Positions 7,555 to 63,165 of a DNA stretch of 64,000 nucleotides are shown piece after piece. Every line of letters starts with the position of its first letter. Position 1 is the stretch's first letter. Made by a program: the position numbers and the translations under genes. This DNA is from Vulcanimicrobiota bacterium (GTDB lineage Bacteria; Vulcanimicrobiota; SpSt-956; JAKJGF01). The DNA is taken from NCBI GenBank assembly GCA_036746235.1, contig DAIOEN010000005.1:7879-71878 (forward strand), written 5' to 3'. The notes under the pieces were generated by a model, which was given only the letters and a program-made list of their open reading frames with translations, did no database searches and was not told where the DNA came from.

Positions 7555-7656
7555 ATCGTTTTTTTTTGTCTGAATTATCAAACGGTAAAATAAGTATACT
7601 TGTTAATAAAATGTTAACATTTTGTTTGATATAATTCTGTAGAAATATGCTATGAT
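7555..7656 (+). promoter_or_regulatory. conserved regulon promoter module, copy A
   Basis: atcgtt 7555-7560, tgtct 7567-7571, 30 nt, gttaataaaatgttaaca 7602-7619, 31 nt, tgc-tatgat (tatgat 7651-7656). Upstream of 7724. Confidence 0.75.
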
Positions 7657-7723
7657 TAGTTCATAAAAATCAGGACATCTAAAAAAATCTGTCCTGAATT
7701 TAAAAGAAAGGAAGTTTTTGTAT

Positions 7724-7933
7724 ATGAAAATTAATCAGACAACTAACTCATCATTTGTAAACACAGGAATAAAAAAGGGAATGGCTGAAGAGGAATTTAG
7801 CTCAAAAGATGTTTTTCAGAAAACAGAAAAACATGAAGATCTTGGGGTTTATAGAGGTAATAAGGCAGTCAAATCAAGTTCATCACCGGGAGAAGATCTT
7901 GCTATCGATCTCATATCAGATTCATGTCAATAA
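7724..7933 (+). CDS. small protein consisting only of the family N-terminal leader (MKINQTTNSSFVNTG...)
   Basis: ATG 7724 sits inside track ORF 7718..7933. The N-terminus aligns with the leaders of 12246..12773 and 30902..31405, but no glycine-zipper part follows. Confidence 0.5.
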   Translation: MKINQTTNSSFVNTGIKKGMAEEEFSSKDVFQKTEKHEDLGVYRGNKAVKSSSSPGEDLAIDLISDSCQ

Positions 7934-8184
7934 GGAACAGACTGCTGCAATAATGTTTTGTGATTATATCAGGGAGCAATTCCTGATAGTCACATATACA
8001 GTATAAACTTATAAGCCCGGTCTGCAATTATGATGCAGTGAATTTAAAAGATATTGCTGATTATTTATTCTGTATAGATTGTTGTACCGGGCAATTTATA
8101 TTCACTTTCGCAAATCTAACAGAAAAAGATAAATTGGAGAAACCCTTTAGAAGTGACGTCAATTTCATCATAAGGAGAGTTATT

Positions 8185-10491
8185 ATGAAACATACAGTAA
8201 TGTCAATACAGGGAAAGTTAAAATCTACAATAAATTTTACTCGAAGTTTTCTAAAAAAACCGGTGGAAATAAATCCTGAGGGAAGAGATTTTTTTATTTC
8301 TTCCGGTAAAGATGAAAAGGAATGGACAGTTCTTATTTACGGAGAAGGTAAAAATAGACTTGCCTATTCCACCGATGCAGCTCTGAATAAAATGGAGAAA
8401 GTCGGTTCAAACAAAGATGTAAATATTGTAGTACAGGCTACAGTCAGTCCGAGCTGGAAAGAAAGATTTTCTCCTGAGATGGGAAGAGTAAATACAAGGC
8501 GTTATTATATTACTAAAGATAATAATGAAGAAAAGATAACTTCTCCTATAGTGGAAGACCTGGGAGAACAAGTTCCCCTGAATGCTGATACTCTGTCAGA
8601 TTTTCTATCCTGGGGTATGAAGGAGTTTCCTGCGAAACATTACATGGTAGTAATAAAGAAACATGGCAGTGGATTTATGAAAACCCGCCATGAGCCACTT
8701 TCTGCAGCAGAACTTGGTGAAGCACTGGAAAAAACAGAGGCGAAAACAGGAAAAACTGTGGATATTCTCTCTTTTGACAGTTGTTCTATGTCACAGATGG
8801 AAGTAGGATATGAAATAAAAGAACATGTGAGAGTTATGGCCGGTTCTCAGGAGGATATATATGCTATTGACTATCCTTATGAAAGAATACTTTCCGGACT
8901 CCAGGAAAAAGCCGGTGTAATAACGGCGAGAGAAGCTGGAGAACTCATTGTTAAATCCCATGAAATAGACGTTCCCAGAGGCATTCAGACAGCAATAGAT
9001 CTGGAAAAATTGAAAAACGTAGGAATAGCCACAAAGGAGCTTGTAGAAACATTAATTAAAAAAGGAATAAAAAGAGAAATAATTTATACCGATATGCTGA
9101 AAACCTCATCTATGGAGCCTGTTGAAAGTAGAAGACTTGCTTTTGATTTCAGAGATGAAAGAGGTTTTCTTAAAAATCTTATGGAAGATAAACATATTAC
9201 ATCAGAAGAAATTAAAGAAAAAGCAAAAATACTGGATGATATGCTTTCAGATGCAGTAATAGCTCATTATATATGGGATACAAAGAAAAAAGTAAAAGAC
9301 GGAAGGGGACTGAACCTTTATATTCCATGGAAAAATCCTTCTAAAGATATAAGAAAAAAATACGACAGTCTTAAATTTGAAAAAGACAGTACCTGGATGA
9401 AACTTATAGATTATATTTTTGAAGATAAACATGTAGCAGAAGATTTTGGAAATGGAATAAAATCATCAGATGAAAAAAATAAACCTGAAAAATTATCTCT
9501 TTCACAGAAATTGGGAAAAGAAATCATACATAATTATAAAAAATATGTTGCCCCCTATCATATGTCTGTCTGCAGGCACATTCCCAGTTGTTCCCAGTAC
9601 GGAAGGGAAGCAATAGAAAAACACGGACTTGTTCAGGGCGGTAAAATGGCTTTTATGCGCATACTGGGCTGTAATTCTGAAGCAACTGCAAAATATGATC
9701 CTGTTCCTGACTTACCACCGGAAGGGGAAGAGGTAAAATGTAATATAGAATATGGAGAAGTACCACCTGATTTCAAAGATAACAACCTTCCTGAAATACT
9801 CGTAACTCCGCCGAAAACAGAAGAAAAATCTCCTTTAAAGAAATATATTGAAAATCATATTATTTCAGCAGGTGCATTAACAGGAAAAATCCTGGGAGGA
9901 ATTACAGGTGCACTTGTTTCATTACCTGTTGGCACTGCTATGGGAGCTATACTTGGAACAAAATCGGGAAGAGATGAAATCACTGATTTCAACAGAAAAC
10001 TCCTCTCAAAATACCACAGAGATTCTGTAAAAGATTTTGCAAATATTGAAAGAGTTGTGGGGACACCGGGTTATAATGTTCATGAAAAAGTAAAAGAACT
10101 TACGGGATCTTTTACAATTACAGAAGATACTCTGAAGAATTCCGGTATAGAAATGTTAAATAGTACATCTGCCGGAACACTTATAAATAAAAGATTTTCA
10201 GAAAAAAAATTAAGAGAAGAACTTTCCGGTCTGAAATTTAACGAAGGAGATATAGATGTAATTATAAATAATGCATCTTACAGTTATAATGAAATCCTTG
10301 CAAAAGTTCTGGGAGGTTCTGCCGGAGCAATAACAGGAACACTTATAGGTGCTCTTGGCGGATCTGCAGTAGGATATCGCTGGGGTTCAAAATTTTCCGG
10401 TTTATTTGCACAGAATTATTTGAAAGAAAAATTTGGAGAACTGGCTACAAAAATAGAAACAGAGCAGATACTTAAATATTATTATGAATAA
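8185..10491 (+). CDS. clostripain-like (C11) cysteine peptidase fused to a YidD-like domain and C-terminal glycine-zipper membrane segments
   Basis: RBS aaggag 7 nt before ATG 8185. C11 motifs WTVLIYGEG.., KKHGSGF (His), LSFDSCSMSQMEVGYE (Cys). YidD motif CRHIPSCSQYGREAIEKHGLVQGGKMAFMRILGCN..YDPVP (nt ~9514-9711). GxxxG-rich hydrophobic stretches near the C-terminus. Confidence 0.8.
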   Translation: MKHTVMSIQGKLKSTINFTRSFLKKPVEINPEGRDFFISSGKDEKEWTVLIYGEGKNRLAYSTDAALNKMEKVGSNKDVNIVVQATVSPSWKERFSPEMGRVNTRRYYITKDNNEEKITSPIVEDLGEQVPLNADTLSDFLSWGMKEFPAKHYMVVIKKHGSGFMKTRHEPLSAAELGEALEKTEAKTGKTVDILSFDSCSMSQMEVGYEIKEHVRVMAGSQEDIYAIDYPYERILSGLQEKAGVITAREAGELIVKSHEIDVPRGIQTAIDLEKLKNVGIATKELVETLIKKGIKREIIYTDMLKTSSMEPVESRRLAFDFRDERGFLKNLMEDKHITSEEIKEKAKILDDMLSDAVIAHYIWDTKKKVKDGRGLNLYIPWKNPSKDIRKKYDSLKFEKDSTWMKLIDYIFEDKHVAEDFGNGIKSSDEKNKPEKLSLSQKLGKEIIHNYKKYVAPYHMSVCRHIPSCSQYGREAIEKHGLVQGGKMAFMRILGCNSEATAKYDPVPDLPPEGEEVKCNIEYGEVPPDFKDNNLPEILVTPPKTEEKSPLKKYIENHIISAGALTGKILGGITGALVSLPVGTAMGAILGTKSGRDEITDFNRKLLSKYHRDSVKDFANIERVVGTPGYNVHEKVKELTGSFTITEDTLKNSGIEMLNSTSAGTLINKRFSEKKLREELSGLKFNEGDIDVIINNASYSYNEILAKVLGGSAGAITGTLIGALGGSAVGYRWGSKFSGLFAQNYLKEKFGELATKIETEQILKYYYE

Positions 10492-10520
10492 TATTATGTG
10501 AAAATACTGTAAGAAAATAA

Positions 10521-10549
10521 AAAAATCAGGTAACTTACCTGATTTTTTT
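10521..10549 (+). terminator. rho-independent terminator after 8185..10491
   Basis: atcaggt/acctgat stem followed by a T7 run. Confidence 0.6.
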
Positions 10550-10579
10550 AGAAATTACTTAATAATTTGAGATTATATG

Positions 10580-10655
10580 AATTTTCATTTTTAACGGCGT
10601 AAAATAAAGCTTTAGATGAAAATTATGTAGAGGCAATTTATCTGAATAATTTATA
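10580..10655 (+). repeat. intergenic repeat family X, copy 1
   Basis: attttcatttttaacggcgtaaaataaagctttagatgaaaattatgtagaggcaatttatctgaataattta. About 75 nt, related to five other copies, all on the + strand. Confidence 0.75.
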
Positions 10656-10658
10656 AAA

Positions 10659-10946
10659 TTAATTATTGCTGCTATTTTTCAGAATATCAAATCTAAAAGA
10701 CCTGGGATATTTCTCTGTAAAAACCAGAGATGAACTCAATTTTTCATGGATAAAACAAAATTCTGATTTTTCTTCATCCACATTTATTCCATTTTCTTTC
10801 AAATCACTTACCATGTTACAGCAGAATTCTTTTACCTGTCCTTCATTGATCAGTAAATTTTTAACAAATTCCATGTAATTTTTAGTTGAAAACTTTTTGT
10901 TGAAAATTATTTCAACCTTTGATTCCGGTAATCTGTAATCGGACAT
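10659..10946 (-). CDS. small hypothetical soluble protein (95 aa) driven by promoter module B
   Basis: ORF with aggtga RBS before ATG 10946 (MSDYRLPESK..). No TM segment or leader. Full promoter module upstream. Confidence 0.5.
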   Translation of the reverse strand: MSDYRLPESKVEIIFNKKFSTKNYMEFVKNLLINEGQVKEFCCNMVSDLKENGINVDEEKSEFCFIHEKLSSSLVFTEKYPRSFRFDILKNSSNN

Positions 10947-10986
10947 TTCTTTCACCTGCTTTCTTCCTTACTGTTTGTTTTTTATT

Positions 10987-11090
10987 ATTATAATCAAAAT
11001 TATGTAAATTTGAAGATAAAAAATGTTAACATTTTGTTAACAGAATACACAATTTATACAACTTTATTTCAGACACAGAGAAACGTTAAC
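10987..11090 (-). promoter_or_regulatory. conserved regulon promoter module, copy B
   Basis: On the minus strand: aacgtt (11082-11087), tgtct (11071-11075), gttaacaaaatgttaaca (11024-11041), 31 nt, tataat (10987-10992). Confidence 0.75.
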
Positions 11091-11187: not shown

Positions 11188-11218
11188 AGTGAGTAGTGAA
11201 TAGTGAGTCAGTAATTAC
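11188..11218 (+). repeat. 7-nt tandem array (tagtgag tagtgaa tagtgag) followed by gtaattac palindrome
   Basis: Read directly. Same 7-nt periodicity and trailing (g)taat..attac hairpin as at 53315 and 62917. Confidence 0.6.
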
Positions 11219-11423
11219 CATGTTTTACTCATCCATAAATATTTTAGGACTTTTCATACAGGCTCTTAGTAACTCTGACTATTACCTACATGTATGAGTC
11301 CTTGATAGAGAAAGGATTTTATAATAAGAAAGTGTAAAACTTAAAACATATATATAAAAACCCTGTTGTCAGGCCACTCTAAAAAGATGTGAGTAATAGT
11401 CAGGTATTACTAATCTAATAGGA

Positions 11424-12221
11424 TCAGACAGTCCATCCCTTCCCATCCAGAGAATCCAGATATGGATCTTCTCCGAAAACCAAAATATTCCCACCCGGCG
11501 CATGAACTACATGGGGTACAATTTCTTTTGCAAGTTTTTCCGCTCCTCCATTGTTGAGAAGTTTCCGGAAATATCCTTCTTCTTCTGTATTCTGCTCTTC
11601 CAGAGGTTTATTTATATCATCTGCATCTCTTTTTTCTTCAGTAATATCAAATTCCAGTTTTCCTTTCATCCTGGCAGAAAAACCTTCTTTTCTTTCTACA
11701 TCAATAATACGGCCAGTTTCTTTCTCTACTTTTACTTTTGTATATGTGTCAGGACCAAGAAGACCGCCGTGGCCATCTCTATACTGTGTATATACGCCTA
11801 CTGTTTTTGTATTAAAGAAGCCTTCTTCTCTTTCTTCGTATTTTGACTCTCTCAGAGAATTTTTGACGTCAATTACACCTGTTTGAGTGAATTCTCCTCC
11901 TCCTGTAGCATGAGAATATCCGTTAATATATGAGTTTTCCATGTATCCATCCGGCGCTTCTTCTGTGCTTGTAATTCTGGCATATTTGGTATTTCCTGTC
12001 TCTGTATCATAAGATACTTCTCCGGCGTGAATGAGTCTGGTGCTCTCCGAATCGTAAGAAGTAATACGATTATTTGAACGGGAAGCTATTACCACTTCAC
12101 CTTTATTGAAATTAATGTCTACCTTATCATTATCAAATTTCTTTACTATTTCTATATCTTCTTTTACAGATTTTATGGTATTCTCTCCATATTTACGATT
12201 TTCATATGTCATATTAATTTT
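11424..12221 (-). CDS. hypothetical protein, one unit of the 'xETGxI' (PepSY-like) repeat family
   Basis: aggagg RBS before ATG 12221 (MKINMTYEN..). Motifs VSYDTETGNTKYARI and VKVEKETGRIIDVERKEG. N-terminus is collinear with 16524..18227. Confidence 0.7.
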   Translation of the reverse strand, partial: KINMTYENRKYGENTIKSVKEDIEIVKKFDNDKVDINFNKGEVVIASRSNNRITSYDSESTRLIHAGEVSYDTETGNTKYARITSTEEAPDGYMENSYINGYSHATGGGEFTQTGVIDVKNSLRESKYEEREEGFFNTKTVGVYTQYRDGHGGLLGPDTYTKVKVEKETGRIIDVERKEGFSARMKGKLEFDITEEKRDADDINKPLEEQNTEEEGYFRKLLNNGGAEKLAKEIVPHVVHAPGGNILVFGEDPYLDSLDGKGWTV

Positions 12222-12245
12222 CATTACAATCATCCTCCTTTAAAT

Positions 12246-12773
12246 TTATGACAGTGCTTCATTTAGGAGTCCGCCGCCGACTGATCCAAAAGCTCCTACC
12301 ACTCCAATGCCTCCTATAACACTGAAACCTACAGCCAGTGGATCTTTCGTTATTACTGCTGCTATTCCGGCTCCTCCACCTGCTATTGCACCTGCCAGTG
12401 CACTGGCAATTATCTGTTTCTTATTTCCTTTCTGTCTATCAGAGATCATTGCTCCCATCATTCCTCCAGTAAGAGCTCCTCCTGCTACTGTCATTACAGT
12501 GGCCACAGGCCCTCCAATCGAATAGAGTGCCCCTGCGGCAATCATACTGCCAATACCACCCAGAATTCCGAGAGGACTGAACAGAGGCATGGGAATTTCA
12601 GAAGGATCTTTGTCTGCAGAAGCTTTCTGTTTTTTTATACCATCCATAGAAAGAAATTCAGGTTTTTCTTCGGTCTTGCCAAGGATAACTTTATCTGTTT
12701 CTTCTTTTTTATCATTTTTTCTTAATAAGCCTGTATTTAATACCTGACTTGACGTTATATTTTTTATTTGCAT
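12246..12773 (-). CDS. leader + glycine-zipper membrane protein (175 aa)
   Basis: MQIKNITSSQVLNTG leader, charged linker, then ~110 aa Gly/Ala-rich hydrophobic region (GILGGIGSMIAAGALYSIGG..GGALTGGMMGAMI..GAIAGGGAGIAAV). Confidence 0.75.
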   Translation of the reverse strand: MQIKNITSSQVLNTGLLRKNDKKEETDKVILGKTEEKPEFLSMDGIKKQKASADKDPSEIPMPLFSPLGILGGIGSMIAAGALYSIGGPVATVMTVAGGALTGGMMGAMISDRQKGNKKQIIASALAGAIAGGGAGIAAVITKDPLAVGFSVIGGIGVVGAFGSVGGGLLNEALS

Positions 12774-12803: not shown

Positions 12804-12906
12804 ACTATAGCATAATGTATTTTTTGTGAAACATAAAAGATGTTAACAAAATGTTAACGGGAAATGTATCTGTGAATAATGTAATAAAGACAGAAAATAA
12901 CGTTAT
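12804..12906 (-). promoter_or_regulatory. conserved regulon promoter module, copy C
   Basis: Minus strand: aacgtt 12899-12904, tgtct, gttaacattttgttaaca (12841-12858), 31 nt, tgc-tatagt (12804-12809). Confidence 0.75.
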
Positions 12907-13030
12907 TGTAATAAGGTAAATCCCTTTTACATATACAATCTAAAGGGCCATAAATTTACCTGATGTGGTAATCAATATTCATTTATAGTGTATATCATAA
13001 CATGTTAAAATTTACTGACCTGAGTACAGA

Positions 13031-13092
13031 CAATTTTAATGGCGTAAAATAAAGATTTAGATAAAATTTTATCTGGAGACAAATATCTAAGA
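13031..13092 (+). repeat. intergenic repeat family X, copy 2 (3' end interrupted by element Y1)
   Basis: caattttaatggcgtaaaataaagatttagataaaattttatctggagacaaatatctaa. Confidence 0.7.
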
Positions 13093-13100
13093 GGGTGTTG

Positions 13101-13222
13101 GAAAAATCCCAGAACACAATTAGTCATATTGTGGAGCCGGCTTCCATCCGGCTTGAGCTGGCATCTTGCCAGCTCCACAGGTGTTATTAAAATTTAAAAT
13201 CATATATTTTTCAGACACGCTC
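13101..13222 (+). repeat. repeat Y1 (~120 nt, GC-rich hairpins), upstream flank of the 13532..14620 cassette
   Basis: gaaaaatcccagaa..gagctggcatcttgccagctccacaggtgttattaaaat..catatatttttcaga. Direct repeat of 14620..14729. Confidence 0.75.
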
Positions 13223-13233: not shown

Positions 13234-13334
13234 TAACGTTTTTTTTTGTCTAATTCTTATACTTTAAACTGTTTATACAGTTAACATATTGTTAATAAAT
13301 TATATGAATTTTTATATGATATATATGCTAAAAT
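13234..13334 (+). promoter_or_regulatory. conserved regulon promoter module, copy D
   Basis: aacgtt 13235-13240, tgtct 13247-13251, gttaacatattgttaata 13280-13297, 31 nt, tgc-taaaat (13329-13334). Confidence 0.75.
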
Positions 13335-13417: not shown

Positions 13418-13472
13418 TCCTGTCTCTGAATGGCATCTAATTCTCATATTTAGTTGTGACCGCTCAGGTTAT
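13418..13472 (+). repeat. repeat family Z, copy 1 (inside the ~190-nt leader of 13532)
   Basis: ..ggcatctaattctcatatttagttgtgaccgctcaggttatg. Related to 24078..24140 (-) and 55847..55907 (+). Confidence 0.6.
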
Positions 13473-13531
13473 GAAATTGAAAAAAATATATGTGCAAATA
13501 TAATTTTAGTTAATATGGAGGTAAAGCAATA

Positions 13532-14620
13532 ATGAAAGTAGAATTGTTAAAAACAGGAACTACTCAAACACAAAAAACAATAAATAATGTAAAAAAAGAA
13601 AAAGAAATTACTGAAATATATGATAATGATACTGTAGAACTTAATTCTAACAAAAGCGGAATAAATATGCCATCTATCACTCAGAGTAAAAATGTTTTCT
13701 TTAAATTTTTTCAAAGTGAAAAAAGTAAAGAAGAAGAAGCTTTCCGTAATGATGTTCTTAATGGAACCTATAAAGATTATTCTTTCTATGAACCTGAAAA
13801 AGTTCTTCTTAAAGATGGCACTGTAAGAGGAGTTAGTCGTAATTCATTTCTGATCGGTTTGGATGAGAAAACTCACAATTACAGGTTGGCAGGTGCTTTT
13901 TCAGGTATGACTCTTGGCCTGGCAGGATCGGCAATTTTTTTCCCGGGATTTCTTCTGGCATTTCCTATCTCTATTATCGCTGGATTAGCTATTGGAGGGG
14001 TTGCGGGAGATTTTATTGGAACAGAGAAAGTAGTAGAAGACTTTAACAAAGATAACAATGTAACTATTGATGATATACATCCTGAAGACAGGCGGGCTAT
14101 TTTTAGGATGTTTAGGATTGAAACGTCTGGGGCTATAGATAAAGATAGATATGTCATTACTGAAGAAGATTTTATTAAAGGAAAAGATTTTAAAGAAACC
14201 ACAAAAGAGTTAATAGATATATTCAAAAAAGTTGGAACTAATAGAATGTCCTACACTTTTGATATAAATAACAGAATTAAAGATATAGAAAATGATAAGG
14301 ATAGAAAGAATGTAAAAGATGCTATTTTTTCTTTTATGGATATACAAAAACCAAAAATTGATGGTTATAGAAGAGGTACACATATTATAGAAATTGCTAT
14401 ATACGTCTTTGATTATATAAAAGAAAATCCTATAAAAGGAAAGAGTAGTGTAGAATCTATAAATGAATTTTATGGACTCTTACAGAGCATGAAAGAACAG
14501 AAAGATGCTCTTCATCTTACATTAAAGATTTATAGAAATATTAAAGGTATAGAAAATGATAATGAAAGAGAATCAGCTAAAAATAAGATTTTAGCAGAGA
14601 GTAACCTCAAAGCATTTTAG
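13532..14620 (+). CDS. hypothetical membrane protein with central glycine-zipper segment
   Basis: 362-aa ORF with ggaggt RBS. N-terminus MKVELLKTGTTQTQKTINNVKKEKEITEIYDNDTVELNSNKSG is collinear with the 11424 and 16524 proteins. Central GAFSGMTLGLAGSAIFFPGFLLAFPISIIAGLAIGGVAG. Confidence 0.7.
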   Translation: MKVELLKTGTTQTQKTINNVKKEKEITEIYDNDTVELNSNKSGINMPSITQSKNVFFKFFQSEKSKEEEAFRNDVLNGTYKDYSFYEPEKVLLKDGTVRGVSRNSFLIGLDEKTHNYRLAGAFSGMTLGLAGSAIFFPGFLLAFPISIIAGLAIGGVAGDFIGTEKVVEDFNKDNNVTIDDIHPEDRRAIFRMFRIETSGAIDKDRYVITEEDFIKGKDFKETTKELIDIFKKVGTNRMSYTFDINNRIKDIENDKDRKNVKDAIFSFMDIQKPKIDGYRRGTHIIEIAIYVFDYIKENPIKGKSSVESINEFYGLLQSMKEQKDALHLTLKIYRNIKGIENDNERESAKNKILAESNLKAF

Positions 14621-19019: not shown

Positions 19020-19085
19020 ATTTTTACCTCCTGTTTTTTATAAATTTAGAGTATCAGAAATTTTCATTTAGAAGTGATTATATAT

Positions 19086-19187
19086 ATTATAATAAAAAAA
19101 ATATCTGATGGCTTATGAAAAATGTTAATAAAATGTTAACAGGAAATAAAATTTATATATAGTAAATTTAGACAAAAATAAACGATA
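19086..19187 (-). promoter_or_regulatory. conserved regulon promoter module, copy E
   Basis: Minus strand: atcgtt (19181-19186), tgtct, gttaacattttattaaca (19123-19140), 31 nt, tataat (19086-19091). Likely drives 18393..19019, 16524..18227 and 14822..16330. Confidence 0.75.
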
Positions 19188-19360: not shown

Positions 19361-19432
19361 CATTTTTTATGGTGTAAATTAAGCTTTAGATAATATTTTA
19401 TCTGGAGACACTTTTATATAAATAATTTAACG
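19361..19432 (+). repeat. intergenic repeat family X, copy 3 (fused to promoter module F)
   Basis: cattttttatggtgtaaattaagctttagataatattttatctggagacacttttatataaataatttaacg. Confidence 0.7.
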
Positions 19433-19529
19433 TTTTTTTTTGTCTTATTTTACTATATTTACCTGTATATCTTTGTTAACATTTTGTTAATATTTTTCTT
19501 GAGCAGAAAAAAATATGTTTATGTATAAT
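19429..19529 (+). promoter_or_regulatory. conserved regulon promoter module, copy F
   Basis: aacgtt 19429-19434, tgtct 19441-19445, gttaacattttgttaata 19475-19492, 31 nt, tg-tataat (19524-19529). Confidence 0.75.
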
Positions 19530-23819: not shown

Positions 23820-23921
23820 ATAATAGAATAAAAAATATCTGAAAGGCTGTAAAAAATGTTAATAAAATGTTAACAGAAGACAATGTCTCTATATGGTAAT
23901 TTTGGACAAAAATAAACGATA
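23820..23921 (-). promoter_or_regulatory. conserved regulon promoter module, copy G
   Basis: Minus strand: atcgtt (23915-23920), tgtcc, gttaacattttattaaca (23857-23874), 31 nt, tattat (23820-23825). Confidence 0.75.
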
Positions 23922-24077
23922 TGATAATAGTATTCTGTATTAAAAGTTTTCATAAGATTTTTTTCTAAATTTTTTGACTTTTTCTAAATAGGGATATTGC
24001 AGAACAGGTAAAGAGACTTAAAATAACGTAAGATTTTCATGGAGTAATATAAAAATTTCTACATGTATTTTCATACT

Positions 24078-24140: not shown

Positions 24141-24210
24141 TCATCATTCTCATATAAATCGCCAGGAATAGCACTTGATGTAACTGCAGTAGATTTTTAA
24201 TATTTTTATT

Positions 24211-24310
24211 AACGTTATTTTCTGTCTGTTTGTTTATATTTTTACTGTTTTTACCGTTAACAATTTGTTAACAATTTTTTTGAATTATTCATCTTAACCC
24301 GTGTTAAAAT
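24211..24310 (+). promoter_or_regulatory. conserved regulon promoter module, copy H
   Basis: aacgtt 24211-24216, tgtct 24223-24227, gttaacaatttgttaaca 24256-24273, 31 nt, tgt-taaaat (24305-24310). Confidence 0.75.
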
Positions 24311-30409: not shown

Positions 30410-30512
30410 ATTATAGAATAAATTATTTTCTCTGCAATATGTAAAATGTTAATAAAATGTTAATAAAATATATAATTGATAATAATGTAATATAGACAAA
30501 AAATAACGTTAA
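30410..30512 (-). promoter_or_regulatory. conserved regulon promoter module, copy I
   Basis: Minus strand: aacgtt (30505-30510), tgtct, attaacattttattaaca (30447-30464), 31 nt, tataat (30410-30415). Confidence 0.75.
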
Positions 30513-30759
30513 TGTGAAAATATAAAAATCAGATGGATAAAATATCTATGAATTTGAACAGGAAAAATAAGGATATTATGTTTTTATAGATTCTGCCTGA
30601 ATAGATGTAGAATAATTTTTCTATCATGTTCTCAAGGGTAATCAAATAAAAATAGACAGAAAATAACTTTTTGCCTTTTCATCCTTTTTTTGCACATTCT
30701 TTTTAATTTTTTATGATTCTCACAGTTTTATTACAGAATAATTATAGTTGAATAACATT

Positions 30760-30860
30760 AACGTTATATTCTGTCCTTTTTACTATATTTGCATGTATGT
30801 CTTTGTTAACATTTTTTTAACATTTTTTATAAAACAAAAGAGTTTATCTTTCTGTATAAT
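30760..30860 (+). promoter_or_regulatory. conserved regulon promoter module, copy J
   Basis: aacgtt 30760-30765, tgtcc 30772-30776, gttaacatttttttaaca 30805-30822, 32 nt, tg-tataat (30855-30860). Confidence 0.75.
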
Positions 30861-33457: not shown

Positions 33458-33560
33458 ATTTTATCAGAGGTATTTTTAAATTATTCAGATTATTTGTTAA
33501 TAATATGTTAACAGGAATAATAGTAAAATATTATATAAAATGGACTTGAAGTAACGTTTA
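33458..33560 (-). promoter_or_regulatory. conserved regulon promoter module, copy K (upstream box degenerate)
   Basis: Minus strand: aacgtt (33553-33558), agtcc, gttaacatattattaaca (33495-33512), 31 nt, taaaat (33458-33463). Confidence 0.65.
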
Positions 33561-33845
33561 TATGCAGTTTTAAATAATTCATAATCTGTAAAAATTTCAG
33601 CATCTTTCTTTTTTTGAACTTAAATAACTGATTTTATAATGTATTTTGAATTTTTTCTCCTGAATAAACGGCGGTTTAATTATCATCCTGTGGTGAAATG
33701 ATATGAACCATAAATAAAATAGAGAGTAAAGATTCTTTTGTTTAATTTACCATGAAATAAGGCTTTAATAGATGTTTGCAGAAAATTTATGACAGCCATC
33801 GAAAATATTCATTGAAGGTTTTATAATTTTTCTATTTTTTATGTT

Positions 33846-33945
33846 ATCGTTTTCCTCTGTCTGAATTTACTATATTTACATGTATGGATCTGCTGGCATT
33901 TTTTTACGTTTTTTATATTGCATAAGAAATAATTTATTCTATAAT
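33846..33945 (+). promoter_or_regulatory. variant promoter module L (skeleton kept, TTAACA repeats replaced)
   Basis: atcgtt 33846-33851, tgtct 33858-33862, tttactatatttaca as in modules F, J and O. gctggcatttttttacg replaces gttaacatttttttaaca. About 30 nt on is tataat (33940-33945). Confidence 0.55.
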
Positions 33946-43981: not shown

Positions 43982-44188
43982 TATGAAACTGTATGTAAAA
44001 TCAATCATATTTTATTATTGACCGTTATTGAAAAATATGAAACTTATAGAGAAATAACAATGCATAACTGGATTGAGGTTTACTGAATTGTATAACTGGC
44101 AGTCTTTCGAGACAGAACAGGGAAATTAATCGTAAGTTTTAAAATGAAGAAAAATAGATAATTTTAATCTTTCTAAAATAGAGTTCTT

Positions 44189-44288
44189 ATCGTTGTTTTT
44201 TGTCTGTATTATACCTGTTTTTTATGTTGTTATTATTAACATTTTTTTCAGGCATTTTATGTTATTATTATGATAGTAGTGTTAAAAA
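44189..44288 (+). promoter_or_regulatory. variant promoter module M (one TTAACA repeat only)
   Basis: atcgtt 44189-44194, tgtct 44201-44205, ~29 nt, attaaca 44235-44241. The second repeat is replaced by ttcagg. Confidence 0.45.
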
Positions 44289-53244: not shown

Positions 53245-53314
53245 AAAATTTTTTCTCCTGTCCCTTGTTATGTGTATGTCATAACCTGACGGGGTGAGTA
53301 TATATCATGTTCAT

Positions 53315-53363
53315 TACTCACGACTCACGACTCACGATTCACGACTCACCACTCACGACTCAC
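53315..53363. repeat. seven tandem 7-nt units (tactcac gactcac gactcac gattcac gactcac cactcac gactcac)
   Basis: Read directly. Lies between the binding-protein gene stop (53367-53369) and the permease gene start. On the mRNA it reads (GUGAGUN)x7, followed by one complementary UACUCAC (53295-53301). Confidence 0.85.
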
Positions 53364-53366
53364 TTC

Positions 53367-55082: not shown

Positions 55083-55360
55083 CGATTCATACTTTTCCTT
55101 ACAGTATTTATAGCACTTTAAAAAAGATAATTTCCCCCTCTAGATACTAATAAAGACATTAACATAGAACAAAAAATAGAACAATCTGTAAATAAAGACT
55201 GAAAATAACGATAGGTGCAAAAAGAATTTCATGAATATTTTATATTAAAAAGTTTTTCTTTCATTTTTTTTGCCTGATGTTTTTTTCTGTCTTTTTACTG
55301 ATATTTACTTTTCAAGTAAAATTGATATTATTGAAAAAATTAATGAAAAGAGGTGAATTT

Positions 55361-55846: not shown

Positions 55847-55907
55847 AGATGCCTGACGAAAAGCATATTCTCATATTTAGCTGTGACCCGCTCCGGTCAT
55901 GCCTGTT
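55847..55907 (+). repeat. repeat family Z, copy 3
   Basis: cagatgcctgacgaaaagcatattctcatatttagctgtgacccgctccggtcatgcctgttt. Confidence 0.6.
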
Positions 55908-56753: not shown

Positions 56754-56924
56754 TCTCTTTGTGTTTTTTTGTAATTCAGATATTTTATGTGAGATATGAT
56801 TTATTGAGTTAATATGACTGTATAGTTTCGTTTTTTTCCTTCTCTCCTGTCTTTTCTGGATGCTCTATTTTTTAGATTAAATATTATTGTAAATACAGGG
56901 TTTTTGTCGTTTTTTTATCATCCT

Positions 56925-57025
56925 ATCGTTTTTTTATGTCTGATTTTACTATATTTACTTATATGTTTATGTTAACAATTTTGTTACATTTTTTTAATAT
57001 TTCAGAGAATTTTTTGTGGTATATT
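56925..57025 (+). promoter_or_regulatory. conserved regulon promoter module, copy O
   Basis: atcgtt 56925-56930, tgtct 56937-56941, gttaacaattttgttaca 56971-56988, 31 nt, tatatt (57020-57025). Confidence 0.7.
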
Positions 57026-57822: not shown

Positions 57823-59013
57823 ATGATCGGATCGTTGAAAAATACCGGTATTAATAACAATCAGTATTTAATTGCAAATCAGACAGGTATTAAAACAAGA
57901 GAAACACAGACTTCTTTCGATATAAAAGAAAATGAGCCAAAAAAACTTGACCCAGAGGTTCTGAACAAACATCTTACTGCAACAAAAGATTTTTATACGA
58001 AAGATACAAATGATTTCACTTCTATGGAATCTGCAAAAAATGCTGATAATACAGGCAATAAAGACATGGAAAATCTTAATCTGACAGGTAATGTTAATGA
58101 TCCCGGGACTCCTCAGGAAATCAGGGATTTTGCCGGAAAAGAAGATCTGGAAGGGAATGTGGCTTATTCTAAAAAGGATAATGTCCTTACACTCGTAGAC
58201 AATGGACGTGAGAATGCTTCATGTCTAGAGGAGAATTATTTTGATGGAAAGTCCCATGAAGGTGTGATGAGAGGCGGCGAGCCTGATAAGCCCACGAATT
58301 ATTATTATTGTGCCACTCCTACCGATGATCCCGACCATGTAGAATTAATGGGTACCGGTGAAGGTAAATATGGCAAAAAGTGGAAGGCCCATGTTTACAG
58401 AACTGAAGGCCCTGATGGTAAAATAACTTATAATACTGTGATGGGAAGCAATAAACCAGATCCTGCATTCAGTGCCAATGTAAATATGAAATACGATGCC
58501 GGCACTGTTGATGACCCGAAGACACCGTCAGACATTAAAAATCTTGCCCATGAAGATATGGAAGGAAAGATTGCCTATTATAAAAGCGGTAATGTTGTTA
58601 CAGTAATGGATAATGCCTGTGACAATCCTTCAAAGCTTCCTGAAGAGAATTATTTTGACGGAAAACAGCATGAAGCTGTCATGAAGGGCAGTGATCCCAA
58701 TAATCCGATACATTATAATTATATAGTTCAGCCGGATCCGAAAGACCCTGAGCATGTCACTCTATACGGGGAAGGGACAGGAACCTATGGAACAGGATGG
58801 GATGGAGATGTATACAGAGTGGTAGACCATGACGGTAAGGTTTCATATAAATCGGTTATCAGAATGAACAACAGGAGAGAGGCTATTGTAACAGGAAACA
58901 GTACTGTTTCTGACGATGGTGTAAAAAGGGATATTAACTGCTACAGACTCGGTTCTATGGACTGTTCTGAAGCCTATAACATGGATGGAACGTTTAATAG
59001 AGACTGGCTGTAA
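57823..59013 (+). CDS. hypothetical protein with two ~135-aa internal repeats (MIGSLKNTG.. N-terminus)
   Basis: gcgaggt RBS. Repeat blocks ..DPGTPQEIRDFAGKEDLEGNVAYSKKDNVLTLVDN..EENYFDGKSHEGVM.. and ..DPKTPSDIKNLAHEDMEGKIAYYKSGNVVTVMDN..EENYFDGKQHEAVM.. Confidence 0.7.
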   Translation: MIGSLKNTGINNNQYLIANQTGIKTRETQTSFDIKENEPKKLDPEVLNKHLTATKDFYTKDTNDFTSMESAKNADNTGNKDMENLNLTGNVNDPGTPQEIRDFAGKEDLEGNVAYSKKDNVLTLVDNGRENASCLEENYFDGKSHEGVMRGGEPDKPTNYYYCATPTDDPDHVELMGTGEGKYGKKWKAHVYRTEGPDGKITYNTVMGSNKPDPAFSANVNMKYDAGTVDDPKTPSDIKNLAHEDMEGKIAYYKSGNVVTVMDNACDNPSKLPEENYFDGKQHEAVMKGSDPNNPIHYNYIVQPDPKDPEHVTLYGEGTGTYGTGWDGDVYRVVDHDGKVSYKSVIRMNNRREAIVTGNSTVSDDGVKRDINCYRLGSMDCSEAYNMDGTFNRDWL

Positions 59014-59420
59014 TATGAAAAATATTTATACAAATGAAATGGGGTATGTAACGGAAAAAAGTATCTGTGAATCTGATGTTTCGTCTTGTTCTGTGCCGGA
59101 ATGATAATAATAGTAAGTGCTGATTGTAAAATAGACACAAAAAAACGATAATAAAATATCCATATAGAAAAATAATATATATAAATACCTGCAAAATCTG
59201 ACCTTTTGCATTTTTTATTCTGCTTCATATATTAAAGAAATCATATATTTCTCTCATTTTCATATCTTTTTTTTACTATAAATTAATGTTATCATAAATT
59301 TTATATATCGATTAAGCCTTTATATGTTAAAAGCTATTACCGGTCGGGATAAGGACATAAACATAAAAACCATTTAAAATACTTAATATCATTGCAGAAA
59401 TGAGCAGAATATAAAAAACT

Positions 59421-62400
59421 GTGGAAAAAATATATAAACTCATAAAAGAAAATAAATTATGGATTGAAGAAAAAGCTCTGTATTATATAAATACATACAG
59501 TGAGATTGAGAATCTGAACACCTGTGAAGGGCAGAAAGTATTTACCTTTAACAGTATTCATGAAACCCTGCTCTTAAGCCTGATACATGAGAAAAATCCT
59601 CTTAATAAAAATACTTATGTAGAACATATATGTTCTATGTCTGGAATTTTACATGCCAGAAGATACAGAGAGAAAAAAATAAATCACAGGGAATTTTTAT
59701 TTTTACTGAAATATTATATTCAGGCCCACAGCGATCTCCTTTTACAGGGAGCATACAGTGACATACATCTGGATGCATGTTCAATTACAAACATTGTTTT
59801 TCGTTTTATAAAAAATGGCTTTATTATGGAATGGCTTAATATGGATTATATAATCAACATAAAAGCTCTGGAAACAGGCCTCAGATATAATGAAAGAGAA
59901 TGGAAATATTTAGAAATATTGAAATATCCTGTTGTTCTGGTAAATGGAGAAAATAAAATCACAGTATTAAACAGAGCAGCAGAAAAGATGATAGAAGAAT
60001 ATACCATACCTGATAAAAAAGAATTTTTCTCATCCCATATACTGAAATACATAGAATCGGAAATATTTATTTTTTCTCTGATGAATAATTTTACCTTTAC
60101 CTTTCCTGTAAAAATCAATATAAAGAACAGGCCCTGTTATTTTAATATAAAAATGATAAAAATACTTTCCGGGAAAAAAACTGACAGGGAAATTGCCGTA
60201 ATCTTATCTGAAACGACAGAAGACATGGAAAATCCTGATAGAAACAGTATTCTTCATCGCGGCCTTTCAATTGAAAATCTCGTAGTAAAAATAGCAACCA
60301 GATTTATTAATATAGACTTTGACACTTTTGACAGTGAAATAGAAAAAAGCCTCAGGATTATAGGAGAATATACAGGAACAACATGTATTATAACTATTTT
60401 TTCAGAAGATAATACCTGCCATTATGAATGGTTTCCTGAAGGAACAATCACTACAGAATATTCTCAAAGTAGTAATAATAAAAAATTTCCCTGGCTTATG
60501 GAGATGATAGAAAAAGGTAAAACAATTTATATACCAAGAGTTGCAGATATGTCCTGTGAAGCAGAGATAGAGAAAGAATATTTTAAAAAAATTAATGTTA
60601 AATCCGTACTTGCCATTCCCCTCTGTCTTAATAAAAAACCTCTGGGTTATATGGGATTTTATAATTATTACAATTTGAAAAACTGGTATAAAGATGATAT
60701 AAAACTCCTCACACTCCTGGGAGATATATTTGTAAATGTATGGCACCGTTATGAAACAGACAGGCAATTAAAAAAATATCAGGAAAATCTTGAATATATG
60801 GTAGCAGAAAGAACTTATGAACTGACAGTTGCAAACAGACAGCTTGAAGAAGAAATCTGCAGCAGGAAAAAAGCAGAAGCCTATCTGAACCACTGGCTTT
60901 CTATGGAAGAATTAATTACAAATATAGCTACCAGATTTATTAATATTACAGTAGAAAATTTTGAAAGAGATATAAGGCACAGTCTTGAAGCCATCGGAAA
61001 ATTCGTAGAAATAGACAGAGCATGTCTGTATTTTTTTGAAATAAATAATAATTCCTGTAATTATGAATATTCTTTGGAAAATAACAGAAAAGATTGCAAT
61101 GGAAAAATGATTTCTGATTTTTTTTACAGTATATTAAAAAAAATAGGTAATTTTGAAGAAATAAATATTTCTTCTGTTTCATCTCTCGATGAAAAAAGAG
61201 AAGATAAAAAGTTATGGAAGTCCCATCATATCGAATCCATATTCATGATCCCTCTTTACAGTAGAAACAATCTGACAGGTTCTTTCTGTTTTATCATGAA
61301 AAATAAACATAGAGAATGGAGTGATGAAGAAAAAAGACTGGCTAAAATAACAGGTGAAATTTTAATAAAAGCCTGTGAAAGGTTCCGTATAACAAAAAAA
61401 ATGAATATACCTTCAGAACCATCTTCAGAACTTATGAGGTACCATAATATTATAGGTAAAAGCCAGGCAATGCAGGACATATATTCCAAAATAGAATATC
61501 TTTCAGACATTCAGAGTACAGTCCTTATTACAGGTGAAAGCGGAACAGGTAAAGAGCTTATAGCAGAAGCACTGCATTACAAAGGGGTAAGAAGACATAA
61601 ACCTCTTATAAAGGTAAACTGTCCTGCTCTATCGGAAAGCCTCCTTGAAAGTGAACTCTTCGGTCATGTAAAAGGAGCTTTTACCAGTGCAGTTAACAAC
61701 AGGACAGGACGTTTTAAACAGGCAGATGGAGGCACTATATTTCTGGATGAAATAGGTGATATATCCATTGAAACACAGAAAAAATTATTGAGAGTTCTTC
61801 AGGAGAAAGAATTTGAGCCTGTTGGTTCCTCTGTATCTGTAAAAGTAGACATACGCCTTATATCTGCTACGAATCAGGATCTTACTGAAAAAGTCAGAAA
61901 AGGAGATTTCAGGGAAGATTTATATTACCGTCTTGAAGTGGTGGAAATAAAACTGCCTCCTCTCAGAGAAAGAAAAGAAGATTTAATGTTAATTTCAGAA
62001 TATTTTATAAATATGTACAGTAAAAAATTAAATAAAAAAATAACATCTATGTCTGATGAGGTCCGTAATATTTTTATGAATTATTCATGGCCAGGTAATA
62101 TAAGAGAACTTGAACATACTGTAGAACACAGTCTTATATTCTGTAAAGGTGAAGAGATTATAGCTGAAAATTTACCTGATAAATTTAAATATCTGAATAA
62201 TAAACCTGTAGACGAACATAAAGAATCATGGGAAGCAAAAATTGTATCGGAATTAAAAGAACAGGAATTAAAAAAAGCAAAAAATAATATAGATAAAATT
62301 GACAGTGAAATTATTGCAATAAAAAAAGCTCTGGAAGAATGTAACAATAATATAAGTAAAGCCTCGAAAATTCTATCCATGAGCAGGCCGACATTATATA

Positions 62401-62432
62401 AAAAAATGGAAACATATAAAATAATAATGTAA
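59421..62432 (+). CDS. sigma-54-dependent transcriptional activator (bEBP) with GAF-type sensory region, AAA+ domain and C-terminal HTH
   Basis: 1003 aa, GTG start per track. [42 protein letters not shown]-terminal Fis-type HTH ..NNISKASKILSMSRPTLYKKM. Confidence 0.9.
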   Translation: MEKIYKLIKENKLWIEEKALYYINTYSEIENLNTCEGQKVFTFNSIHETLLLSLIHEKNPLNKNTYVEHICSMSGILHARRYREKKINHREFLFLLKYYIQAHSDLLLQGAYSDIHLDACSITNIVFRFIKNGFIMEWLNMDYIINIKALETGLRYNEREWKYLEILKYPVVLVNGENKITVLNRAAEKMIEEYTIPDKKEFFSSHILKYIESEIFIFSLMNNFTFTFPVKINIKNRPCYFNIKMIKILSGKKTDREIAVILSETTEDMENPDRNSILHRGLSIENLVVKIATRFINIDFDTFDSEIEKSLRIIGEYTGTTCIITIFSEDNTCHYEWFPEGTITTEYSQSSNNKKFPWLMEMIEKGKTIYIPRVADMSCEAEIEKEYFKKINVKSVLAIPLCLNKKPLGYMGFYNYYNLKNWYKDDIKLLTLLGDIFVNVWHRYETDRQLKKYQENLEYMVAERTYELTVANRQLEEEICSRKKAEAYLNHWLSMEELITNIATRFINITVENFERDIRHSLEAIGKFVEIDRACLYFFEINNNSCNYEYSLENNRKDCNGKMISDFFYSILKKIGNFEEINISSVSSLDEKREDKKLWKSHHIESIFMIPLYSRNNLTGSFCFIMKNKHREWSDEEKRLAKITGEILIKACERFRITKKMNIPSEPSSELMRYHNIIGKSQAMQDIYSKIEYLSDIQSTVLITGESGTGKELIAEALHYKGVRRHKPLIKVNCPALSESLLESELFGHVKGAFTSAVNNRTGRFKQADGGTIFLDEIGDISIETQKKLLRVLQEKEFEPVGSSVSVKVDIRLISATNQDLTEKVRKGDFREDLYYRLEVVEIKLPPLRERKEDLMLISEYFINMYSKKLNKKITSMSDEVRNIFMNYSWPGNIRELEHTVEHSLIFCKGEEIIAENLPDKFKYLNNKPVDEHKESWEAKIVSELKEQELKKAKNNIDKIDSEIIAIKKALEECNNNISKASKILSMSRPTLYKKMETYKIIM

Positions 62433-62694
62433 AGATAGCTGTTATTATAGTGGAAATTCCCGGTAAAGGTTCAGAAGAAATAGAGTGAAGTGACAGAAAA
62501 CAACAATTATTTATCTCTATATTTTTTTCAGGTTCTTGAAAAAATATTGCCCTGCAGAGGTGAGATGCTTGGCCCCATATATATCAACCTGAGGCTTTCT
62601 ATGTAAGAGAAAGCAGTAATTGAAAGGTGGAAGATTTCTTTTTTTTGTCAATGATGGTGTCCAGGTAATTTTTATCCCTTTATCTCTTCCTTGT

Positions 62695-62729
62695 ATTATA
62701 GTGTAGTTTGTTGTGAACTACACTATAAT
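62695..62729. repeat. 14-bp-stem inverted repeat attatagtgtagtt-tgttgtg-aactacactataat
   Basis: Read directly. Intergenic, 260 nt after the bEBP stop. Confidence 0.6.
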
Positions 62730-62916
62730 CTTAATTCAACACAGTACTTGACCTTTAAAAAATAAAAAATCCTATGTAATCCAGCTGAAAAATAGAACAA
62801 GTCTGGTTGAAAATTAGACTTTATTTATTCCTGTATAATAATAAGGTTTTTTTAGAGTAAGCTTGTTTCGAGCATCTATAGTGTATTTTATAACTTATTA
62901 GAATTTAAATAATTCT

Positions 62917-62975
62917 TAATGCGTAATGCGTAATGCGTAATAGGTTATTACCCCTTCGCATCATGCTTTACTTAT
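62917..62975 (+). repeat. 7-nt tandem array (taatgcg x3) plus gtaata..tattac hairpin
   Basis: taatgcgtaatgcgtaatgcgtaataggttattaccccttcgcatcatgc. Confidence 0.7.
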
Positions 62976-63065
62976 TACGAGATCATTAATTATGGATTGT
63001 TATGAAATTAACTATAATTGGCTAAAGTCGAGTATAAAATAAATATATTAAGATTTATTTTTTTT

Positions 63066-63165
63066 AACGTTGCTTTTTGCCTATTTTTATATAAAATTAC
63101 TATTTTTGCGGTTAACAATTTGTTAACAAATTATTTAAATAATTTCGCATTTAATCTGTTATGAT
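63066..63165 (+). promoter_or_regulatory. conserved regulon promoter module, copy Q
   Basis: aacgtt 63066-63071, tgcct 63078-63082, gttaacaatttgttaaca 63111-63128, 31 nt, tgt-tatgat (63160-63165). Confidence 0.75.

Follow-up and report, generated by a model that had tools for sequence, protein, structure and literature searches.

A promoter-like module of about 100 bp occurs thirteen times in a 64,000-nucleotide stretch of contig DAIOEN010000005.1 (assembly GCA_036746235.1), which derives from an uncultured member of the Eremiobacterota (Xenobiia); this whole stretch is called the window hereafter. The module is real and strongly non-random, and its most plausible reading is that of a shared promoter for a response-regulator-type regulon, the principle of which is already known. 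From sequence comparison, we give an activator-dependent regulon promoter, as the best explanation of the module, a probability of about 0.6. What is new is the phylum, the set of orphan genes bearing a common leader, a spacing shifted by one helical turn, and an additional conserved block at the upstream end of the module.

Architecture and copies of the module

The alignment of the thirteen regions, designated A to M, resolved an upstream block (U), a repeat block (R) and a -10 hexamer. U reads TA(A/T)CGTT-N7-G(T/C)C(T/C) (TAWCGTT-N7-GTCY), and this replaces the (A/T)ACG(T/A)T given in the first-pass annotation of the window. After a gap of 28-30 nt follows R, (T)GTTAACA-N4-(G/A)TTAACA, that is, GTTAA-N6-GTTAA. 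R is separated from the -10 by 31 nt in twelve copies and by 32 nt in module J, and 59-61 nt always separate the end of U from the -10. The common order and spacing described earlier for thirteen copies were therefore borne out by measurement, and the coordinates proposed for them proved correct to within 1 nt. Other elements of that description hold in part. In particular, the hexamer TAnnAT is found in 11 of the 13 copies but not in C (TATAGT) or L (TATATT), and the upstream TG said to be frequent (here TGn) precedes the -10 in 7 of the 13. The spacer sequence ttactatatttac, reported as common between U and R, is present in the subfamily formed by E, F, G, J, L and the degenerate copy N, but it is not a module-wide feature.

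The R block GTTAACA-N4-RTTAACA has nine exact matches in the window, compared to 0 expected from 100 dinucleotide shuffles; when up to two mismatches are allowed, 26 strand-matches are found and 1.6 are expected. These 26 correspond to 13 quasi-palindromic sites, most of them matched on both strands, together with two stray two-mismatch matches (16040-, 63122+), and a position weight matrix (PWM) built from the 13 sites revealed no further site above 8 bits in the 64 kb. The U pattern is matched 19 times (2.4 expected). Coding sequence makes up about 81% of the window, yet every one of the 13 R and 18 U blocks falls in intergenic DNA (P ~4e-10), and each of the 13 modules faces a same-strand open reading frame (ORF) with a Shine-Dalgarno site, located 23-197 nt past the -10. 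A fourteenth full copy lies just outside the right end of the window, ahead of a CBM9/DUF5916 gene, as seen in another assembly of the same species (L049).

The blocks are 78% identical between copies, compared to 46-48% for the spacers and 37% expected from composition, and in many pairs of copies the spacers are at background identity with their lengths unchanged. Blocks and lengths that remain fixed despite diverged spacers point to selection on the sites and on their helical phase, different from what recently copied DNA would display. Furthermore, the upstream repeat of R is a full 8-bp palindrome, TGTTAACA, in 8 of the 13 copies, and a T always precedes the downstream repeat. The copies, and the genes that they face, are the following.

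Module A, 7554..7656 (+): U 7554-7571, R 7602-7619, -10 TGC-TATGAT at 7651-7656; 69-aa MKINQ gene (7724-7933) and Peptidase_C11-YidD gene (to 10491)
Module B, 10987..11088 (-): R 11024-11041, -10 TATAAT at 10987-10992; 98-aa ORF (10659-10955)
Module C, 12804..12905 (-): R 12841-12858, -10 TGC-TATAGT; glycine-zipper gene (12246-12773) and PepSY-like gene (11424-12233)
Module D, 13234..13334 (+): R 13280-13297, -10 TGC-TAAAAT; 362-aa gene (13532-14620) after a leader of 197 nt
Module E, 19086..19187 (-): R 19123-19140, -10 TATAAT; three-gene operon of 18393-19019, 16524-18227 and 14822-16330 (HExxH)
Module F, 19428..19529 (+): R 19475-19492, -10 TATAAT; MIGSIKNN gene (about 19766-20611)
Module G, 23820..23921 (-): R 23857-23874, -10 TATTAT; PAD-like gene (22166-23773) and Lnb_N gene (20965-22110)
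Module H, 24210..24310 (+): R 24256-24273, -10 TGT-TAAAAT; gene 24348-25178 and the next gene (end 26436)
Module I, 30410..30511 (-): R 30447-30464, -10 TATAAT; then only short ORFs of 30 and 62 aa
Module J, 30759..30860 (+): R 30805-30822, -10 TATAAT at 32 nt; glycine-zipper gene (30902-31405)
Module K, 33458..33559 (-): R 33495-33512, -10 TGA-TAAAAT; gene 32733-33425 and epimerase gene (31722-32663)
Module L, 56924..57025 (+): R 56971-56988 with the second repeat shortened (GTTACA), -10 TGG-TATATT; gene ending at 57684 and gene 57823-59013
Module M, 63065..63165 (+): R 63111-63128, -10 TGT-TATGAT; 316-aa MIGDINLS gene starting at 63225 and running past the window end
Degenerate copy N, 33845..33945 (+): ahead of the phosphorelay operon; U and TATAAT at the usual distance, CTGCTGGCATTTTTTTACG at the position of R
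Degenerate copy O, 44188..44288 (+): ahead of pilin-like genes; U, half an R block (TATTAACA) and TGT-TAAAAA at the usual distance
Degenerate copy P, 55107..55213 (-): ahead of oppA; U, a weak R (GTTAATGTCTTTATTA) and TGC-TATAAA 5 nt further off than in the full modules
Orphan U block Q, 59133..59150 (-): without R and without -10, in the gap ahead of a sigma-54 activator gene
Lone second U block G2, 24014..24031 (-): 110 nt upstream of the U of module G

The degenerate copies already noticed at 33845, 44188 and 55213(-) are confirmed as copies of the U block with a weak or missing R. Modules K and L, which had been listed as a divergent pair, lie 23 kb apart, and the partner of K is the degenerate copy at 33845. 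The gene behind module I is probably disrupted; as an alternative, the promoter of module I may now feed a sugar-phosphorylase operon. The module itself is intact; the stretch after it (30100-30380, -) holds the two short ORFs, and beyond these are two copies of a 96-nt repeat, described below, followed by the HAD/GH65 operon. Downstream of the genes of module L, on the same strand and beyond a gap of 408 nt (59013-59421), lies a sigma-54 activator gene (59421-62432), which may or may not be a member of the same unit.

Promoter type, conservation and rival explanations

In the region 16-18 nt upstream of the -10, the match to TTGACA is 2.6 of 6, compared to 2.57 of 6 for random positions, in agreement with the earlier remark that no good -35 is present. 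A -35 no better than random implies that these promoters depend on an extended -10, on an activator or on both, and in copies E, G and I TGn is lacking as well. When the -10 is placed at -12 to -7, R occupies about -61 to -44, and its two halves show the 11-bp periodicity that had been pointed out before. R is a tandem direct repeat with a periodicity of 10-11 bp, set at a fixed helical phase upstream of an absent or weak -35, and both features are those of promoters activated by OmpR/PhoB-type regulators.

The R block is conserved in relatives. We considered the 21-kb loci around five orthologues of the module G gene in four other Eremiobacterota/Xenobiia genomes of 52-57% GC (L053; L054 and L056, which belong to the same metagenome-assembled genome, MAG; L055; and L057), scoring them with an R matrix built from the window only. 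The 300 nt upstream of the G orthologue contain the best R match of the locus in L056 and L057 and the second best in L053, L054 and L055; the product of the window fractions over the five loci is 4.6e-9, which is an upper bound. A -10, in many cases with TGn, comes after each of these matches; the distance is 21 nt in L054 and L055 and about 30-32 nt in L056 and L057. For L053, a TAAGAT lies 34 nt after the repeat when counted in the sequence (about 32 in an earlier assignment), a figure that is provisional. The spacings of 21 and about 31-32 nt are one helical turn apart, and at 21 nt the proximal repeat falls where the -35 would be, as in the classical PhoB-type arrangement. Further strong R matches in the same loci are found ahead of a Peptidase_C11 gene and of genes without a Pfam match. 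The relatives keep the direct repeat GTTAA-N6-GTTAA, whereas the ACA tail that makes the palindrome is often lost (GTTAATT, GTTCATT). Retention of the direct register with loss of the palindromic tail favours head-to-tail binding by a winged-helix protein.

In a closer relative, represented by a 1-kb JGI contig (L063), the module A orthologue has an intact U, a perfect R and a TGn -10. Its U-to-R gap is shorter by one base and the gap from R to the -10 is longer by one, which leaves the distance from U to the -10 the same. About 30-55 nt upstream of the U of module A (about 7497-7530) there is a 7-bp hairpin, TTCCTGA-GAA-TCAGGAA, which L063 (about 565-600) keeps through changes on both arms (TTCCCTG-GAAG-CAGGGAA); the window and L063 are similar only from about 10 nt before this hairpin onwards. 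In a relative of 36% GC (L064), the only RTTAA-N6-RTTAA of the 10-kb locus lies upstream of the orthologue of the module K gene, and there is no full module. A further contig (P0026) yielded a gene truncated at the 5' end and no promoter. A scan of GTDB species genomes and JGI metagenome contigs for the exact pattern CGTT-N7-GTC-N27-32-TTAACA-N5-TTAACA returned 14 and 29 unrelated stretches, respectively, and no module; this negative result is weak, because the module-bearing JGI contig L063 was not returned and the collections are incomplete.

We propose that the module would work as a sigma-70-type promoter that has no -35 but a good -10, in many copies extended by TG. An activator would bind GTTAA-N6-GTTAA (R, about -61 to -44, with its centre near -52.5) as a head-to-tail dimer and would recruit RNA polymerase from that face of the helix. 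This activator would most likely be a phosphorylated winged-helix response regulator of the OmpR/PhoB family encoded elsewhere in the genome, and at least 13 transcription units would be switched on together. That the protein bound to R belongs specifically to the OmpR/PhoB family has, in our estimate, about an even chance.

Several observations weigh against this proposal. No winged-helix (Trans_reg_C) output domain is encoded in the window or in about 11 kb of its flanks; among the proteins encoded there are two sigma-54 activators, hybrid kinases and receiver-only proteins. The activator-dependent winged-helix promoter suggested by the first-pass annotation is thus supported by the register of the repeats, their phase and the missing -35, but its regulator was not found in the window or flanks; the accompanying statement that no DNA-binding regulator for this site is evident in the window is correct for winged-helix proteins but overlooked two sigma-54 enhancer-binding proteins with a Fis-type helix-turn-helix (HTH). 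Each repeat in this genome is also an 8-bp palindrome, which would be compatible with two dimers of a protein from another HTH family. The centre of R near -52.5 coincides with neither of the classical activator positions, -41.5 for class II and -61.5 for class I, and the seven copies with a TG-extended -10 could fire without any activator. Moreover, U is missing from distant relatives, stands alone in Q and G2 and is also found ahead of housekeeping operons, and this independent occurrence leaves it unexplained by a simple one-regulator model.

A sigma-54 promoter, to which the two enhancer-binding proteins had drawn attention, was rejected: no -24/-12 element is present at any module, and a sigma-54 promoter was not found elsewhere in the window either. 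The strict pattern TGGCAC-N5-TTGCW, with two mismatches, has 14 matches in the window (19 expected), and the looser GG-N9-TGCW has 47 (about 32 expected), mostly within genes; none of either set falls in a module. Since the modules are without such an element, the two sigma-54 activators are unlikely readers of R. The two proteins are GAF-AAA+-HTH_8 paralogues located in inverted orientation at the ends of the window (1-2817, -, and 59421-62432, +); over about 1.3 kb their nucleotide sequences are 72-79% identical. The complete one (59421-62432) carries GAFTSA instead of GAFTGA as its signature loop.

The U block is as well conserved as R and lies at a fixed distance, about -107 to -90. It is found at the usual distance from the -10 where R is degenerate or replaced (N and O), 5 nt further out at P and alone at Q and G2. 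In distant relatives, the best scores of a U PWM are about 10 bits, compared to 22-27 bits in this genome, and U was not detected there. These occurrences suggest that U is a second, separate and lineage-specific cis element, found also without R, and not a part of one site, as had been assumed. Most likely it would serve as an auxiliary protein-binding site. One option is that GTTWT-N5-GTCY within U is a weak repeat with 10-bp spacing, which the same regulator would bind 44 bp, or four 11-bp steps, before R; U would then recall the two-site targets of the Sae system discussed below. The other is that it is the site of a second factor, broader or more global in its action. The T-tracts that follow CGTT, those inside R and those that follow R share roughly the same phase.

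The likeness among the copies could also derive from descent and not from a common regulator, if a promoter cassette had been propagated by recombination or transposition, either as a unit of about 100 bp or as a back-to-back pair with 240-330 bp between, and copied ahead of unrelated genes, as with putative mobile promoters or miniature elements that carry promoters. Putative mobile promoters are homologous promoter sequences upstream of non-homologous genes, and such an arrangement is found within this one genome: the genes behind the module are not homologous, and degenerate copies precede the opp, pilin and phosphorelay operons. The copies form subfamilies with 60-80% identity across the spacers, namely, (E, G, F, J, L, N), (H, K, M, D) and (C, I, B), and divergent pairs constitute 108-nt inverted repeats (e.g., 19080-19187 and 19428-19535). 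In addition, a truncated Tn3-family transposase is encoded nearby (2902-3942), and the K orthologue of a relative lacks the full module. However, no terminal inverted repeats or target duplications surround a single module, nor is there a GGGG outer end, and TAWCGTT and TAnnAT, at the two ends of the module, do not form inverted repeats, different from what would be expected of miniature inverted-repeat transposable elements, repetitive extragenic palindromes or Tn3-derived elements. Many spacer pairs are at background identity while blocks and spacing are fixed, all 13 copies are intergenic and correctly oriented, and R with a phased -10 occurs upstream of orthologues in genomes of 52-57% GC that share no other module sequence. 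We consider propagation an unlikely account of the module taken by itself. It is compatible with regulon function, as it would explain the origin of the copies and not their role, and it may well account for the growth of the regulon. The reverse complement of U (GAAAAnnACGTTAA) is loosely reminiscent of what we take to be the inner end of Tn3-type inverted repeats; this likeness was dropped, being confined to GAAAAnnACGTTAA and lacking the GGGG end. Assemblies of the same species from other samples carry the same copies at the sequence level (L049, L058 and L061) or the same gene order (L001-L003).

Less probable than propagation is a dimeric regulator of a non-winged-helix type (e.g., Xre or TetR), possibly a repressor, of which one dimer would sit on each TGTTAACA, the two occupying a single face of the DNA and repressing or modulating an otherwise constitutive extended -10 promoter. 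The full palindrome at the upstream repeat of 8 of the 13 copies agrees with this, as do the seven TGn promoters, which could act without an activator; nevertheless, the interval from -61 to -44 is clear of the -10 and the start site, so that simple occlusion is unlikely, copies E, G and I would need help to fire, and the relatives lose the palindrome but keep the GTTAA-N6-GTTAA register. We attach very little weight to a bidirectional element, in which TTAACA, read as the reverse complement of the first repeat, would act as the -35 of an opposite-strand promoter with TATAGT 16-17 nt further on, reading through U, and the regulator at R would switch the direction; U (AGACAnAAAAnAACGTTA) would then be the conserved 5' end of short divergent RNAs. 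A promoter scan did find TTAACA-16-TATAGT (10/12) on the reverse strand of E and F, in G, H, J, L and M a similar reverse-strand hexamer can be read by eye at a distance of 16-17 nt from the repeat, and U would start about 6 nt after this reverse -10. Yet the reverse -10 is limited to one or two subfamilies (A and B lack it, and in C, D, I and K it is weak), U also occurs where there is no such promoter (Q, G2 and N), and paired reverse promoters would collide in the divergent pairs. As to short RNAs, a search of the whole window with Rfam gave 0 matches at the gathering score, and the 5' leader downstream of module D has no significant fold (z = -0.5). Least credible of all is an epigenetic switch, in which methylation of the palindromes GTTAAC (the HpaI site) and AACGTT, hexamers of a type that DNA methyltransferases recognise, would gate the regulon. 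Each R block contains one or two GTTAAC, AACGTT is present in 9 of the 13 U blocks (ATCGTT in the other four), and 17 of the 23 GTTAAC sites of the window fall in modules; against this, GTTAAC is not clearly depleted outside the modules (6 sites, about 10 expected), no DNA methyltransferase is encoded in the window, where the methyltransferase at 56011-56685 is of a small-molecule type, and the relatives keep GTTAA but not the full hexamer. A restriction-site or methylation reading of GTTAAC was thus rejected, as the hexamer is not avoided outside the modules.

Products of the putatively regulated units and other elements of the window

The units behind the modules had been described as all of unknown function, but some of their products contain recognisable, albeit few, domains: Peptidase_C11 and YidD (A), an HExxH peptidase and PepSY-like repeats (E), a PAD/agmatine-deiminase-like enzyme and Lnb_N (G) and an epimerase (K). 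Most products open with a common leader, MKINN(I/L)(S/T)...K.E...D.V.L, which the E1, K and B products do not share, and glycine-zipper membrane segments are found at the ends of several of them. Judging from these sequences, the products seem to be mostly lineage-specific orphans with a secreted or membrane-targeted appearance. The first 11 residues of the H and J products are nearly identical and encoded by different synonymous codons, which indicates that the leader is kept at the protein level.

When 1.84 billion representative proteins were searched with a leader profile, the only matches were proteins of the organism itself. A FlgM-like leader, suggested by the MKIN... start and the D.V.L motif, was rejected, since a Pfam search with ten N-terminal segments at E values up to 10 gave no FlgM match. 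The product of the module H gene has no homologue among 5.8 billion proteins, and E1, G1 and K1 had no match in a sequence search of solved structures (PDB). A role in anti-phage defence was set aside as well, PADLOC having given no credible match. The homologues of the module G gene all come from MAGs named Candidatus Eremiobacterota or Candidatus Xenobiia, with about 60% identity.

The contig of the window is also present in the ENA assemblies ERZ724080-87 and in Logan assemblies of the SRR33302xx runs, which are metagenomic. The gene after module F contains, within its coding sequence, a 99%-identical tandem duplication with a period of 246 nt (19985-20113 and 20231-20359). An allele with one unit fewer is found in ERZ724087 and SRR3330208 (228 aa, compared to 310 aa as called), indicating that the repeat number in this gene varies within the population.

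A second intergenic repeat family of about 96 nt has copies, all on the forward strand, at 10561-10656, 13006-13101, 29579-29674, 29958-30053 and 31559-31654, and a partial one at 19376-19418. It consists of an invariant core, ATGGCGTAAAATAAAG, followed by the palindrome AGATAAAATTTTATCT and by (G/A)TCTRAATAATTTA; the copies either adjoin the 3' ends of genes that converge or separate the divergent modules of C/D and E/F, and the predicted RNA structure is weak (-4 kcal/mol). A third element of about 45 nt, CATGACCGGAGCGGTCACAACTAAATATGAGAAT, with a GC-rich hairpin GACCG-GAG-CGGTC, is found antisense in the long leader of module D (13426-13473, -), between modules G and H (24084-24131, +) and ahead of the methyltransferase gene (55851-55888, -). 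Copies of an element rich in TGTAAA/TTTACA (e.g., TGTAAAATGTAAATTTACATTTTACA) lie in inverted orientation, one after a hybrid kinase gene (4123-4170) and the other between the giant hybrid kinase gene and a receiver gene (42845-42885); their half-sites resemble what we presume to be TyrR boxes. Short tandem repeats with a 7-nt unit, namely, CTCACGA (about 8 units, 53311-53369), TAATGCG (3-4 units, about 62910-62950) and a CACTATT-like unit (about 11190-11230), are intergenic and near module regions.

Several palindromic hexamers are strongly under-represented with respect to a first-order model (TCTAGA, 2 found and 35 expected; GATATC, 6 and 38; CTTAAG, 7 and 20; ATCGAT, 9 and 23), while TTTAAA and AATATT are over-represented over the whole window; the under-representation suggests restriction-modification pressure. 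The GC content is uneven, being 39-44% in the giant hybrid kinase and opp permease genes (36000-42000 and 48000-54000) and 30-35% in the module-driven cluster (7000-34000). Relatives of the same class have 52-57% GC, with one exception at 36% (GCA_040217665). The truncated Tn3-family transposase (2902-3942, -) comprises only the N-terminal 346 residues (DUF4158) and adjoins an effector-like gene cluster.

Significance and comparison with known systems

We found no paper on gene regulation or on secreted proteins of the uncultured Xenobiia Eremiobacterota. If the module is an activator-dependent regulon promoter, the regulon is directly testable, as one short DNA probe (GTTAACAttttGTTAACA) should capture the regulator, with GTTAACATTTTGTTAACA as the sequence for binding tests. 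The genes behind the box offer a catalogue of candidate effectors or toxins, among which are C11 and HExxH peptidases, a PAD-like enzyme and glycine-zipper membrane proteins. Conservation of the box across genomes of 32% to 57% GC points to an old, class-wide circuit, and the shift between 21 and 31 nt, together with the added U, represents a natural experiment in the rebuilding of activator-dependent promoters. Even if this were an ordinary two-component regulon, it would be a clean case of regulon discovery from raw sequence.

It is tempting, but speculative, to go further and to see in the module a two-part cassette, in which an ancient, class-wide R box became coupled at a fixed distance to a new U specific to this AT-rich Xenobiia lineage and was then copied ahead of unrelated genes. 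The result would be a large co-regulated arsenal of orphan proteins with an undescribed leader (MKINN...K.E...D.V.L) as a putative export signal, and U alone would define a second, broader regulon comprising pili, peptide uptake and a phosphorelay. We hold this to be rather improbable as a whole.

Like putative mobile promoters, the module is one promoter sequence ahead of unrelated genes in one genome, with subfamilies that point to copying. Different from them, it has conserved blocks, fixed spacing and saturated spacers, which bespeak long-term selection, and its R block is older than the copies, since it is present in distant relatives.

The analogy with Pho boxes drawn in the first-pass annotation is sound, although the SaeR box is a closer match and R also fits the WalR/VicR consensus TGTWAH-N5-TGTWAH. 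R furthermore satisfies what we take to be the consensus sequences of Bacillus subtilis PhoP (TT(A/T/C)ACA-N5), of CtrA (TTAA-N7-TTAAC) and of the Legionella/Coxiella PmrA box. At the sites of Escherichia coli PhoB (the Pho box), PhoP, WalR and CtrA, direct repeats phased at 11 bp replace or precede a missing -35 and a winged-helix dimer activates, as we propose here. However, our repeat stands one helical turn further upstream (31 nt) than the classical position that replaces the -35, an arrangement seen in some relatives (21 nt), and B. subtilis PhoP needs four repeats, whereas the module has two.

In Coxiella, the PmrA box is found ahead of at least 68 promoters, including those of dot/icm and effector genes (PMC4117601). 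The module resembles the PmrA promoters of Legionella and Coxiella in its tandem TTAA-N7-TTAA, placed there for an OmpR-family regulator at a set distance from the -10 of dozens of effector genes, and in that one box would define an arsenal of lineage-specific secreted proteins. The flanks differ (cTTAATatT in PmrA boxes, GTTAACA here), PmrA promoters have no U block, and the secretion system, known for Legionella and Coxiella, is hypothetical here.

The closest parallel is the SaeR box of Staphylococcus aureus, GTTAA-N6-GTTAA, which is bound by phosphorylated SaeR and has an essential TTAA and a preference for A/T in the N6 (PMC5083920). SaeR, a winged-helix protein of the OmpR/PhoB family, activates more than 20 genes for secreted proteins, and low-affinity Sae targets have two sites and show no RNA polymerase binding without SaeR (PMC5083920). 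R corresponds to the SaeR box letter for letter. No SaeR-like gene was identified in the window or its flanks. Different from the SaeRS system, the module carries one perfect site held rigidly at 31 nt from the -10, with an extra U block, at a fixed 28-30 nt beyond it, that is not described for Sae promoters; its products are unrelated orphans, and S. aureus belongs to another phylum than the Eremiobacterota considered here.

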